From a virus: 39,031 bases of DNA. The stretch lies in the UHGV virus genome UHGV-0112814; one strand, written 5' to 3'. Shown here one piece after another: positions 7,596 through 31,696 of this stretch. The notes below the pieces were generated by a model, which saw nothing but the letters and a program-made list of their open reading frames with translations, did no database searches and was not told the DNA's origin. How positions within the stretch are numbered: position 1 is the stretch's first letter; every line of letters starts with the position of its first letter. The position numbers were made by a program, and so were the translations under genes.

Positions 7596-8983
7596 TAATC
7601 ACCCCATAGTGAAGAAAAGTTACTGCTGGCTGCTGGCTGTGATACCTGTGCAGGTTGAGATTGCTTCCGCTGAGATTTACCAACATTAACGTTATATTGT
7701 TGGTTGTAATTGTTGGTGTATTCCTGAATTTCACGAATCGACTGCTGCATAGCCTCCGGGCTTGAATAGTCAACCTGCGGCATCCCCTGAAAATACATCT
7801 TCGCTTCTGCAACGGTGTTAATACCACTGGCACCCATGTCCCTTGCTGCCGCCACACCCTGATTCTGCATTCTGCCCTGAATACGTTGTGCTGAGTTATA
7901 TAACTGGCGCTGCTCTTTTCCCGTTAATCGGCTGCGAACATCAGCACCAATTGCTGGATTACCTGCACCGCCTGTCATTCCTGTCATGAAATCGAGAGCA
8001 GAAGCGTCTGCATTTGCGATCGCGTCGATATCCTTCTTCATGGCATAGTTTTGTGCTGATGCAGACGATGTTGCAGGCGCAGCGATTGAACTGGCAGGGA
8101 CGCGAACCATATTCCCCTCGTTGTCGATGCCTTCGTAGAACGCATTAGCCCCAGCGCCATGAAGCTTCCCGCCTACCGTTACAGTTCTGCCATCTGATAA
8201 CTGAACTGTACGCTCATCATTCCCAGCGATTCCTCTTGTTGACGCTCGCTGCATTGCCAAATCCTGACCTCGTCGCGCAGTAGAAGCAGATAAGTCCTGA
8301 CCGCGCATCGTGATGTTCTGGCCTCGTGCTGTTAGCGCCTCGCCAGCCTGATTTCTGCGGATTGTCTCTGCAAGTTTCCCGCGATCAATCTCACGACCAG
8401 CCATCTTGTCCTGAACATTGAAGTAATCAATTGGACCAAGAGCAGCCATTCCAAGGTGATCAACAAACTCACCAAATCCTGAAGGGTTCTGCTGATACAT
8501 CTGAGCAACGCTGTTAGGGTCAACACCTACGCGAGTCAGTTCCTTGGCGTTGTTTTGCAGCCATGATTGCATCGCTTCTGGAGACGATGCCGCAAGGCGA
8601 GCGCCAGCCGCTAAGGTACCGATGGAATTGCGCTGGTCTTCATCAATGAATCCCATGCCTTTACGAACGGATTCAATCTGGTCTGGATATTCAGTAGCTA
8701 ACTGACGCAAAGCACCGCGATCACCAGACGCATAAGCATTAGCGTATGCCTGCTGAAATTCTTTCTGCCGATGAGCCTGCTTTTCCTGCTGAAACACCCC
8801 CGCAATACCTGAAAGGCCTTGCAAAGCAGTCAGCCCAACATTGTTAGCGCCTGAACGCTCAATATCATTGTTCTGCCTGATAAGCTGAAGCGTATTGCCG
8901 ATGTCATTTACGTTCGGAGCGTTTGAGTTGACACCACCGATACCAGCCAACAATCCGCCATTTGTTCCTTGCCAAGTAGCCAT
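7595..8983 (-). CDS. DNA ejection protein (P22 gp20-like)
   Basis: 462 aa, Gly/Ala/Gln-rich, synteny with P22 gene 20 (471 aa). Confidence 0.7.
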
Positions 8984-28995: not shown

Positions 28996-29074
28996 ATGTA
29001 AGTATTTCCTTAGATAACAATTGATTGAATGTATGCAAATAAATGCATACACCATAGGTGTGGTTTAATTTGAT

Positions 29075-29106
29075 GCCCTTTTTCAGGGCTGGAATGTGTA
29101 AGAGCG
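29075..29106 (-). promoter_or_regulatory. nutR (boxA cgctctta at 29099..29106; boxB gccctgaaaaagggc at 29075..29089), followed by tR1-like sequence
   Basis: Minus strand reads cgctcttacacattccagccctgaaaaagggcatcaaattaaacc..., matching lambda nutR. Confidence 0.85.
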
Positions 29107-29114
29107 TTGATAAC

Positions 29115-29345
29115 TTAAGCAGCCATTAATTCAGGCCAGATGCTTTCCCAATCAACCGGATGAAGGTCTTTGCGAGTCACTTCACCATTGCTGAACTTCT
29201 CAATCAGAACACAAAGTGCTGCGCCCAATTCATGATTACGGCTAAGTGCTTTCCTCAAATAGCCGATAGAAGTTCCGCACTTGGTGGCAAATTCTCTCTG
29301 CTCTTCCAGTGAAAGGGAGTTCAGATACAAGCGGAGTTCTTCCAT
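29115..29345 (-). CDS. cro: Cro-like repressor (non-lambda specificity)
   Basis: 76-aa ORF divergent from cI across the operator region, RBS aaggag; HTH-like segment TKCGTSIGYLRKAL. Confidence 0.7.
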   Translation of the reverse strand: MEELRLYLNSLSLEEQREFATKCGTSIGYLRKALSRNHELGAALCVLIEKFSNGEVTRKDLHPVDWESIWPELMAA

Positions 29346-29377
29346 TTGCTATCTCCTTCCCGTTGTTGAATAAGGTG

Positions 29378-29406
29378 AGTTTACCTGCAGGTAAAAAACA
29401 AATCAA
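29378..29406 (-). promoter_or_regulatory. Putative pR promoter (-35 ttgatt, -10 taaact) overlapping operators
   Basis: Minus strand: ttgatt-17 nt-taaact upstream of the cro RBS. Confidence 0.5.
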
Positions 29407-29433
29407 TACCCACAGGTTATTTACCGATAGGTA
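29382..29433. promoter_or_regulatory. oR: three operator sites (29382..29393 perfect TACCTGCAGGTA; 29407..29418 and 29422..29433 variants)
   Basis: 12-bp palindrome and two degenerate copies in the cro-cI intergenic region. Confidence 0.6.
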
Positions 29434-29453
29434 ATCAAAGATAGAATTAAATC

Positions 29454-30140
29454 ATGGATAAATACGAACAAAGACGACTAAGGCTGATAGAGATAAGAGA
29501 CCGATTCTGTAATGGAAAGGCCTCAGAGTTGGCTCGTCGAATAGAAAGGGAACCATCATACGTTTCCAGAATGCTGTATCCGGAAGGAAAAAGCGGAAAA
29601 AAACGCATTGCTGACGATATGATGGAACTAATTGAAAAATCTTTTAATCTCCCACGCGGATGGATGGACATGCTTGCAGATAGCAAAGTTGGATCTGCAG
29701 ACCATCTTGAGTTTGCGGGTAACGTTCGTGCGGGTTTTGTTCCGGTAATTGGTGAAGCCGTTTTGGGAGTTGATGGCTCAGTGGATATGATTGAATTCAG
29801 ATCCGGTTGGTTAAGCATCTACAGTGGCGATAAAGATGCTTACGGTCTGAAGGTTAAGGGTGACAGCATGTGGCCAAGGATTCAGTCAGGAGAATATGTT
29901 GTTATTGAACCAAATACGCCAGTACATCCAGGTGATGAAGTCTTTGTAAGGACCAAAGATGGTCATAACATGATAAAGATCATGAACAAAACAAGAGACG
30001 GAGACTATCAGTTTAGTAGTATAAACAGCGATCACCGTCCAATCACTCTTCCTGTTGAAGAAGTTGATAAAATGCATTTTGTTTCAGCTATTGTGAAACA
30101 CACTAGGTACGTAGACCAGGACGATCTGCCAAAATTTTGA
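29454..30140 (+). CDS. cI: CI-type prophage repressor with C-terminal S24 (LexA-like) autopeptidase domain
   Basis: 228 aa; C-terminal GDSMWPRI ... GDEVFVR ... IKI is a LexA/S24 Ser-Lys dyad pattern; divergent from cro. Confidence 0.9.
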   Translation: MDKYEQRRLRLIEIRDRFCNGKASELARRIEREPSYVSRMLYPEGKSGKKRIADDMMELIEKSFNLPRGWMDMLADSKVGSADHLEFAGNVRAGFVPVIGEAVLGVDGSVDMIEFRSGWLSIYSGDKDAYGLKVKGDSMWPRIQSGEYVVIEPNTPVHPGDEVFVRTKDGHNMIKIMNKTRDGDYQFSSINSDHRPITLPVEEVDKMHFVSAIVKHTRYVDQDDLPKF

Positions 30141-30451
30141 GGATAAAGCAGCAAATGTTTATACCAGGTATAGTGGTCGCTGTTGTAATCATCTGCTTCA
30201 TATGGGCAAAGTTATCTCCTGTAAGCTCTAAGCATACAGCTGAACTCATGAAGAAGAAGCATCTTATACATGAGGCAGAAACGATAATTAAGAAGTTCAA
30301 AGGCATGTCATATGACGACATGTCATCAGATCAGATTGCTATGTATAAATGCGCCATTGAGCGTCTTGACCACTTAAACGGACTCAAACCCAAACACACC
30401 CCGGTAGAATCAAAATTGCCGCAATGGCCAAGCAATCCAAATAGCTTCTGA
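30137..30451 (+). CDS. Small membrane-anchored protein co-transcribed with cI (candidate lysogen-expressed exclusion function)
   Basis: 104 aa; N-terminal TM helix MFIPGIVVAVVIICFIWA; start overlaps the cI stop; followed by a strong terminator. Confidence 0.6.
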   Translation: MRIKQQMFIPGIVVAVVIICFIWAKLSPVSSKHTAELMKKKHLIHEAETIIKKFKGMSYDDMSSDQIAMYKCAIERLDHLNGLKPKHTPVESKLPQWPSNPNSF

Positions 30452-30462
30452 CATCTCCTTTC

Positions 30463-30486
30463 AGCCCGCAAAGCGGGCTTTTTTAT
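30463..30486 (+). terminator. Intrinsic terminator ending the cI operon
   Basis: agcccgc-aaa-gcgggct perfect stem followed by ttttttata. Confidence 0.75.
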
Positions 30487-30548
30487 ATCAATCCAAAAAA
30501 TTAATTACCTGAAAATTCAAACAGGTAAACTCTCACACCAATTTTATT

Positions 30549-30585
30549 TACCTGCAGGTATAGACAACAGTTTTACCTGCAGGTA
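30549..30585. promoter_or_regulatory. oL: two perfect TACCTGCAGGTA operators (30549..30560, 30574..30585) overlapping pL
   Basis: Same 12-bp palindrome as in oR, centre-to-centre spacing 25 bp. Confidence 0.6.
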
Positions 30586-30589
30586 TATT
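30561..30589 (+). promoter_or_regulatory. pL promoter (-35 tagaca, -10 tatatt), predicted +1 near 30597
   Basis: 17-bp spacing; downstream leader atcagcaggacgcac... matches the lambda pL transcript start. Confidence 0.55.
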
Positions 30590-30630
30590 TTAAGCCATCA
30601 GCAGGACGCACTAACCACCATGAAGGTGAT

Positions 30631-30660
30631 GCTCTTAAAAATTAAGCCCTGAAGAAGGGC
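30631..30660 (+). promoter_or_regulatory. nutL (boxA gctcttaaa, boxB gccctgaagaagggc at 30646..30660)
   Basis: gctcttaaaaattaagccctgaagaagggcagca matches lambda nutL. Confidence 0.85.
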
Positions 30661-30858
30661 AGCATTCAAAGCAGAAGTCTTTTGGATTGGATGAATGCGC
30701 AGGCTGATGCTCGACCAATGTATAAACAGCGCTCATGGCAAGCAGTAACCAATCTGCGCCTCAAGACAGCGTCACTGGTAGTGCGGGCGCTCTAACCAGT
30801 AAGCCGGAGTTCAGCGCCGGCCATCCAATCACCAAAGCTAACTGACAGGAGAATCCAG

Positions 30859-31185
30859 ATGGATGCACAAACACGCCGCCGCGAACGTCGCGCAGAGAAA
30901 CAGGCTCAATGGAAAGCAGCAAATCCCCTGTTGGTTGGGGTAAGCGCAAAACCAGTTAACCGCCCTATTCTCTCGCTGAATCGCAAACCGAAATCACGAG
31001 TAGAAAGCGCACTGAATCCGATAGACCTTACGGTGCTGGCTGAATACCACGAACAGATTGAAAGCAACCTGCAACGTATTGAGCGCAAGAATCAGCGCAC
31101 ATGGTACAGCAAGCCACGCAGTGAAATGGGTGTGACTTGTGTTGGTCGCCATAAAACGAAGGGCAAATCCATCGCATTAATCTGA
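30859..31185 (+). CDS. N: Antiterminator N (lambda N)
   Basis: MDAQTRRRERRAEKQAQWKAANPLLVGVSAKPVNRPILSLNRKPKSRVESALNPIDLTVLAEYH ... is lambda N, including the Arg-rich boxB-binding motif. Confidence 0.95.
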   Translation: MDAQTRRRERRAEKQAQWKAANPLLVGVSAKPVNRPILSLNRKPKSRVESALNPIDLTVLAEYHEQIESNLQRIERKNQRTWYSKPRSEMGVTCVGRHKTKGKSIALI

Positions 31186-31193
31186 GGTGGCCC

Positions 31194-31295
31194 ATGAAGA
31201 ACAGCATCAAGTGCCCGGTATGCGGTCGTGACTTCGATCCACGCACTCCGGTCTGCCACATCAGCAAGTATCACCAGTCAGCGAAGAACTGCTAG
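31194..31295 (+). CDS. Small Cys-rich (zinc-ribbon-like) ORF just downstream of N
   Basis: Own translation MKNSIKCPVCGRDFDPRTPVCHISKYHQSAKNC; RBS gaggtgg; below track cutoff. Confidence 0.3.
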   Translation: MKNSIKCPVCGRDFDPRTPVCHISKYHQSAKNC

Positions 31296-31354
31296 CTGGA
31301 GAAGATACGCGATGCCCGGCGGCAATATTTCAAAGTAACAGCGAGTGAGGTTCG

Positions 31355-31696
31355 GTGATGGAAAATAAAACGGCTAACGGGATGTACGTACTGCGTGGTG
31401 AGCTGAAAAAGGGACTGATAGCGGAGCTGGTAAAGGCATACGACCAGCTGACTCAGGAGTCAGAAAAATTAAAGATCCTCGGACTCAGGTATAACACCCC
31501 TCGACGCATTGTTTATGGCTTTATGTATGAGGTTGCAGCATTAACCGTCAAGGAAATTATGTTTAAAACTGAGGGTGGCTTTTACATCCCACAGGATGAC
31601 TTCGAATCGAGCGACGATATCGATTCATTAGCCAAAGAGATCATCGATGTAATTGACTGTAATGGCGCATTCCTTGAGCGCCTTCTTAAGGAGTAG
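31355..31696 (+). CDS. Hypothetical early-left protein (acidic C-terminus)
   Basis: 113-aa ORF with no recognisable motif; first sizeable gene after N. Confidence 0.55.
   Translation: MMENKTANGMYVLRGELKKGLIAELVKAYDQLTQESEKLKILGLRYNTPRRIVYGFMYEVAALTVKEIMFKTEGGFYIPQDDFESSDDIDSLAKEIIDVIDCNGAFLERLLKE

Follow-up and report, generated by a model that had tools for sequence, protein, structure and literature searches.

The window, that is, the whole 39,031-nucleotide stretch of DNA analysed here, is the virus genome UHGV-0112814, a lambda-like E. coli phage, in which positions 30549-30660 lie between a repressor gene and a gene for an N antiterminator. The features of the locus, whose early-left operon is read rightward, are collected in Table 1. 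A cro-like gene is transcribed divergently from the repressor gene across an operator-bearing intergenic region, and its product gave a weak match to a YdaS-type HTH (26 bits, under the Pfam cut-off of 30). The repressor carries a LexA-like autocleavage domain (Peptidase_S24; E 1.4e-17, 63.9 bits against a cut-off of 23.3), and is 98.2% identical in amino acids to the repressor of mEp043. The next phages among the matches listed, which are Stx phages, stand at 49%, and just 7 other records fall in the 60-80% identity band. A Pfam search with the small ORF located 3' of the repressor returned no match, and a feature analogous to the Timm-like terminator is annotated in the record of HK544.

Table 1. 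Features of UHGV-0112814 from nutR to the end of N (positions are those of the window)
Feature	Position	Strand	Remarks
nutR	29075..29106	-	boxA CGCTCTTA 29106-29099; boxB GCCCTGAAAAAGGGC 29089-29075; first lambda-identical sequence on the pR side
cro-like gene	29115..29345	-	ORF; unalignable to lambda cro
oR operators	29381..29434		TTACCTGCAGGTAA 29381-29394; TTACCGATAGGTAA 29421-29434; degenerate copy between; same type as oL
cI-type repressor, putatively of mEp043 immunity type	29454..30140	+	Peptidase_S24
small ORF 3' of repressor	30155..30451	+	position of lambda rex; mEp043 homologue annotated hypothetical
intrinsic terminator, Timm-like	30463..30485	+	7-bp GC-rich stem followed by a T run; closes the immunity transcript
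split palindrome TTACCTG-N10-CAGGTAA	30505..30528		upstream of oL2; read from the sequence
oL2	30548..30561		TTACCTGCAGGTAT; last base is the first base of the -35 hexamer
pL	30561..30589	+	-35 TAGACA 30561-30566; 17-nt spacer; -10 TATATT 30584-30589
oL1	30573..30586		overlaps the pL spacer and -10
CATCAGCAGGACGC	30596..30609	+	pL positions -1 to +13; common to lambda-, P22-, 21-type and other nutL leaders
lambda-type leader block	30596..30685	+	nutL boxA TGCTCTTAA 30630-30638; boxB GCCCTGAAGAAGGGC 30646-30660
leader insert, variant V3, non-lambda	30686..30829	+	144 nt, 31% to lambda
N antiterminator gene	30859..31185	+	N36 domain, E 1.6e-26, 91.9 bits

Two copies of TTACCTGCAGGTA are present at oL, one in oL2 and one in oL1. 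The pL hexamers match the consensus at 10 of 12 positions, and a 'putative PL' is annotated at the same place in the mEp043 record. When the 39 kb were scanned with the operator motif TTACCTNNAGGTA, allowing at most one mismatch, only the two oR and the two oL sites of Table 1 were found, amounting to 8 strand hits against 0.32 expected by chance. Because the motif is confined to these places, the sites represent genuine oL and oR of a non-lambda immunity type, as the original prediction had supposed for the operators upstream of the joint, where identity to lambda is also low (see below). The half-sites of the split palindrome upstream of oL2 are set apart, instead of being contiguous as in oL1 and oL2. 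This palindrome is kept in related immunity types, and may act as a distal third operator or be bound in a different mode.

UHGV-0112814 was aligned pairwise with lambda (J02459) in segments covering 30440-31185, the check that had been proposed together with the claim of an abrupt joint near 30596. Over 30440-30595 the two are 44% identical, a value that comes from an optimised alignment of A/T-rich promoter DNA. A 17-nt exact run begins at 30596, and from there 80 of 82 positions are identical through nutL (30596-30677; 97.6%), or 86 of 90 when the comparison is taken to 30685. Match counts in 10-nt steps sliding across the joint are 5, 5, 6, then 9 and 10. The change of identity at 30595/30596 is thus a step and not a decay, and the claimed abruptness was confirmed, gradual decay not having been seen. 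C30596 occupies position -1, and A30597 aligns with +1 of lambda pL as well as with the A marked as the 5' nucleotide of pL RNA in the curated HK544 and P22 records. Judging by this homology and by the promoter spacing (A30597 is placed 7 nt after the -10), A30597 is the putative pL +1. Identity to 434-like relatives starts about 10 nt further upstream (ATTTTAAGCC), from which it follows that the true boundary lies where oL1 and the -10 element end downstream, and that the joint falls at -1 against lambda because the lambda discriminator differs. The break at -1/+1 is valid against lambda itself.

A mirror joint is found at 29106/29107. On the pR side, identity to lambda starts at 29106, exactly at nutR boxA and 9 nt after the stop codon of the cro-like gene, and persists with hardly a break across nutR, the pRE region and cII. 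The two joints together delimit an exchangeable unit of 1.49 kb (29107-30595), which has nut sites on both flanks and contains three reading frames (cro-like gene, repressor and small ORF) together with oR, oL/pL and the terminator.

The sequence downstream of pL +1 is itself a mosaic, in which the 14-nt universal start passes into a lambda-type nutL block, followed by a variable insert and then by N, whose 5' part and variable 3' end are separate pieces. In nutL, boxB (GCCCTGAAGAAGGGC) is identical to that of lambda, while boxA is TGCTCTTAA versus CGCTCTTAA in lambda. The first base of this boxA, at 30630, is C, G or T among relatives; it is T in UHGV-0112814, giving UGCUCUUAA, which is presumably closer to the rrn boxA than is CGCUCUUAA of lambda. 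From boxA on, nutR is identical to lambda, which matches the lambda-type nutL. Two G-to-T changes, at 30678 and 30683, occur only in UHGV-0112814 (0/89 relatives), and weaken a small CAAAGC..GCTTTG hairpin directly after boxB. Past the insert, 283 of 286 positions agree with lambda over 30830-31115, a segment that spans the Shine-Dalgarno sequence and N codons 1-86. These codons are 99% lambda at the nucleotide level, and encode the arginine-rich boxB-binding N-terminal peptide. The last ~21 codons of N (31116-31185) have diverged, with 51% identity to lambda. Hence, the earlier description of the leader, nutL and N as essentially lambda sequence applies to 30596-30685 and to N codons 1-86, and fails for the insert and for the last ~21 codons of N.

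The insert belongs to a larger collection. Among relatives (L001-L123), at least seven unrelated inserts of 81-239 nt occur between nutL and the N ribosome-binding site, and these assort freely with immunity type. Each is closed by a covarying long-range helix of 14-16 bp, with duplex z-scores of -3.5 to -6.4; in UHGV-0112814 this helix is formed by about 30679-30693 with 30822-30838. Its strands are GGGGUGUGUG/CACACACC-A-CC in lambda, GAGUAGCGCG/CGCGUUACUC in another insert variant, and GGGAUUGGAUG/CAUCCAAUC-A-CC in the UHGV-0112814 type. The closing helix is probably the stem that RNase III processes in the leader of lambda N. A 154-nt insert variant (L005, about 7900-8045, and L082) ends in ...GCTGGTTCGACTCCAGC-CACCACACC-ACCA, an end that recalls the 3' end of a tRNA: what looks like a T-arm, its loop being UUCGACU, comes first, then the closing helix contributes its 3' strand, and ACCA stands last. 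A tRNA-like element in this insert was rejected, as ARAGORN found none and Rfam gave only an 11-bit match to a tmRNA T-arm (E 0.19). An Rfam scan of 29000-31400 of UHGV-0112814 yielded no match above threshold.

The closest known counterpart is mEp043 (JQ182734), which has the same TACCT..AGGTA operators, promoter, repressor and junction, and is 96.8% identical in nucleotides over the aligned 82% of 29400-31400. It differs in its leader insert, a 239-nt variant versus the 169-nt type of UHGV-0112814, and in its virion module, UHGV-0112814 being a P22/Sf6/CUS-3-like podovirus. In the virion half (1-25000), P22/Sf6/CUS-3-like podoviruses match at 94-96% in patches, and no phage record covers 80% of that half. 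UHGV-0112814 thus combines modules in a new way, its early region around cII and N being lambda-like.

Joints at these two places are classical in the imm434, imm21 and lambda immunity substitutions, where the left bound is the start of pL RNA and the right bound lies just before nutR. In HK544 (EF120455), a wild phage of lambda immunity, the record annotates the '5' nt of sequence similar to lambda early leftward transcript'. In other loci, 434-like operators meet this leader at the position where those of UHGV-0112814 do. These classical cases and HK544 differ from UHGV-0112814 in that they carry another repressor/operator family. A parallel to the N gene is found in phages L and P22: nutL and the first 75 residues of gp24 are common to both, and their gp24 C-termini are unrelated and their immC regions divergent (PMC8022706); N of UHGV-0112814 likewise is 99% lambda over 86 codons and then diverged. 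P22 and L differ from UHGV-0112814 in having a P22-type boxB and gp24, not the lambda type, and a Salmonella host.

To see how far the joint is spread, two panels of loci were compared. Panel 1 consisted of IMG/VR loci with a lambda-type leader, from which shortened loci had been removed, and held 103 sequences including UHGV-0112814, lambda and mEp043. Upstream of one conserved leader, its members display six unrelated operator sets: 434-like (ACAA..TTGT) in 34, GTAC-type in 30, lambda in 22, the mEp043/UHGV-0112814 type in 14, and two rarer sets in 2 and 1. The ACAA-N6-TTGT operators are those that we attribute to 434. All six sets converge on ...AGC(C/A)CATCAGCAGG. In 89 heteroimmune loci, which represent the five other operator types, identity to UHGV-0112814 is 1.0 from 30596, and per-site identity over 30559-30595 ranges from 0 to 0.75, save for T30590 at 0.99. 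The leader block 30596-30685 is near-invariant in these 89 loci by construction, since panel 1, like the matches of the IMG/VR pattern scan described below, was retrieved with sequence from that block; how diverse the loci are upstream, and at which nucleotide that diversity ends, is independent of this retrieval.

Panel 2 was chosen by the repressor protein, and thus independently of the leader. The identical junction was present in all 27 loci that had both a repressor at least 98% identical and a readable pL-side sequence. The junction to the lambda-type leader is likewise identical in mEp043, and occurs in at least 25 distinct IMG/VR sequences. Parts of a 321-nt query across the joint were found in 910 of 5426 complete E. 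coli genomes, and at least 80% of it in 22. Loci with repressor homologues at 55-64% (L166-L203) were uninformative, most of them having no leader of nut type within 3 kb. The boundary is old and common across the phage population, and was not formed in UHGV-0112814.

Markers on the two sides of the joint have been shuffled. In 96 distinct sequences, nearly every combination of immunity type, insert type and the SNPs 30613 and 30630 occurs, which calls for repeated recombination within or beside the ~90-nt shared block. The nearest cassettes, from several prophages, are 99.7-99.9% identical to that of UHGV-0112814 over 1.49 kb, and adjoin the lambda-type insert instead; the insert of UHGV-0112814 is, in turn, 98.6% identical to inserts behind other immunities. 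As near-identical cassettes are followed by a different insert, the latest exchange to have affected UHGV-0112814 appears to lie downstream of the joint, in shared sequence, and exchange most likely proceeds by recombination between the homologous flanks. The joint itself represents the limit of homology, and crossovers probably fall inside the shared flanks and not at the joint. The modular exchange of immunity regions put forward in the original prediction is borne out by the six operator sets before one leader, by the mirror joint and by the free assortment of markers. Our reading, to which we assign a probability of about 0.85, is that 30549-30660 comprises oL2, oL1 and pL of an mEp043-type immunity cassette joined to a lambda-type leader with nutL, and that this cassette can be swapped between shared flanks.

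Such an exchange might work as follows. The parts recognized by the repressor, namely the operators over the -35 and -10, would travel with the repressor and cro, and the parts transcribed from +1, namely the leader start, nutL and the RNA-binding part of N, would travel with the antitermination module. With near-identical DNA on both sides of heteroimmune cassettes, homologous recombination could replace one cassette by another as a whole, when phages co-infect a cell or when a prophage is resident, perhaps through Red/Erf-type or host RecA functions. Such a swap would leave intact the pairs repressor-operator, N-nut and cII-pRE, and the position of the boundary may be fixed by selection for such co-adapted pairs. 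What appears as a sharp step would be unrelated operator/repressor sequence beside a ~98% identical flank. Consistent with this scheme, Martinsohn et al., citing earlier work, state that modules can be exchanged by way of short conserved flanks, and their own experiments show that Red efficiently recombines diverged phage DNA (PMC2327257). In mEp phages, cI and cro were reported by Kupczok et al. to be co-transferred as modules (PMC9836094).

Other origins of the joint are conceivable. A joint free of any shoulder is usually taken as a sign of illegitimate recombination (discussed in PMC2327257), and no shoulder of intermediate identity is seen against lambda, as would be expected if a single illegitimate event in the lineage of UHGV-0112814 itself had fallen at +1 by chance and, being harmless, had been kept. 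Nonetheless, the same junction nucleotides recur in mEp043 and in many prophages, five other immunity types meet the same leader at the same base, and a short discriminator shoulder does exist against the 434-like and other types, with identities of 0.63-0.99 at 30590-30595. Recent clonal descent of the carriers is argued against by their different virion and leader modules. An event of this kind is largely refuted by the recurrence of the junction, and we regard it as most improbable. An assembly chimera or another artefact at 30596 verges on the incredible, as the same junction is present in the independently sequenced mEp043, in IMG/VR prophages and in the 22 complete E. coli genomes where at least 80% of the query was found.

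It could also be argued that no exchange took place, and that a fast-evolving repressor and its operators, under diversifying selection, simply diverged in place beside slowly evolving flanks. All cassettes do have the same architecture, with two or three operators over the -35 and -10, and the A/T-rich promoter consensus accounts for 44-50% identity once the alignment is optimised. Divergence in place is difficult to reconcile with the occurrence of markers on both sides in nearly all combinations, with flanks that are 97-100% identical around cassettes that cannot be aligned, and with near-identical cassettes (99.8%) beside different leader inserts. The repressor, moreover, is 98% identical to that of mEp043 and 49% to the next group among the phage matches listed. 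We consider this explanation very unlikely, and exchange of the cassette between shared flanks remains the preferred one.

The first 14 nt of the shared block deserve separate consideration, for they extend beyond lambda-type leaders. Relatives of the repressor at 78-85%, and other lambdoid loci, have different nutL leaders, among them some with a P22-type boxB (GCGCTGACAAAGCGC) and some with a 21-like boxB, and these leaders too start with CATCAGCAGGACGC. In a set of 108 distinct pL regions, this 14-mer links 21 operator clusters to 9 nutL leader clusters. For example, both lambda operators and 434-like operators stand before a P22-type nutL via the 14-mer (L243, L288). A pattern scan of IMG/VR with 15 positions (14 fixed bases and one degenerate) gave 114 usable matches; a boxA lay downstream in just 16 of these, and the rest were treated as chance. 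The pL RNA of P22 (BK000583) starts with the same CCATCAGCAGGACGC and its record annotates homology to lambda, so the similarity over the 14-mer is already known.

Why the 14 nt are kept can be explained in more than one way. They may be under functional constraint as the first nucleotides transcribed, through promoter escape or a protective 5'-terminal RNA hairpin, and so be retained in lambdoid pL transcripts, with any role in crossover being incidental or absent; we think this possible, at rather less than an even chance. The 14-mer is indeed kept behind the 21 operator clusters and before the 9 nutL leader clusters, including that of P22 (L324, 700-714), and a 5'-terminal hairpin, AUCAGC-AGGAC-GCUGGU, is predicted to form from it in leaders of P22 and 21 type. 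The lambda-type leader, that of UHGV-0112814 included, keeps the 14 nt without the 3' arm of this hairpin. The hairpin therefore cannot be the general reason for them, and was rejected as such. Pairing of the ITS with boxA was rejected on similar grounds, as it is predicted in lambda-type leaders only, with a summed pair probability of about 4.8 versus 0.03-2.7 in the other types. Covariation within the 14-mer is not obtainable because the sequence hardly varies. Constraint on the 14-mer is compatible with cassette exchange and does not exclude it.

A bolder proposal is that the 14-mer serves, lambdoid-wide, as a universal and functionally constrained linker between the exchangeable immunity cassette and nutL/N specificity, acting both as an initial-transcribed or 5'-hairpin element and as a micro-homology for re-pairing. 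We consider this unlikely. For RecA to recombine efficiently, 14 nt of homology are by themselves too few, so that a crossover within the 14-mer, where leader types differ, is no more than plausible. The idea that a short constant sequence between unrelated modules mediates their exchange goes back to the modular theory of Susskind and Botstein and to Clark et al. (2001), so far as these are cited in PMC2327257; as in that case, the constant sequence here is short and its flanking modules assort independently. The homology of the 14-mer is already annotated in GenBank, and only its reading as a two-sided linker and its breadth might be new.

Thus, the joint is real, sharp and a module boundary, and as such is an already known, classical feature of phages that have been sequenced and annotated. 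It leaves the general understanding of lambdoid immunity exchange unchanged. Its use for annotation is that pL +1 and both ends of the cassette are fixed by it, and it provides a nucleotide-level case of temperate phages reshuffling regulatory specificity without breaking co-adapted protein-site pairs.
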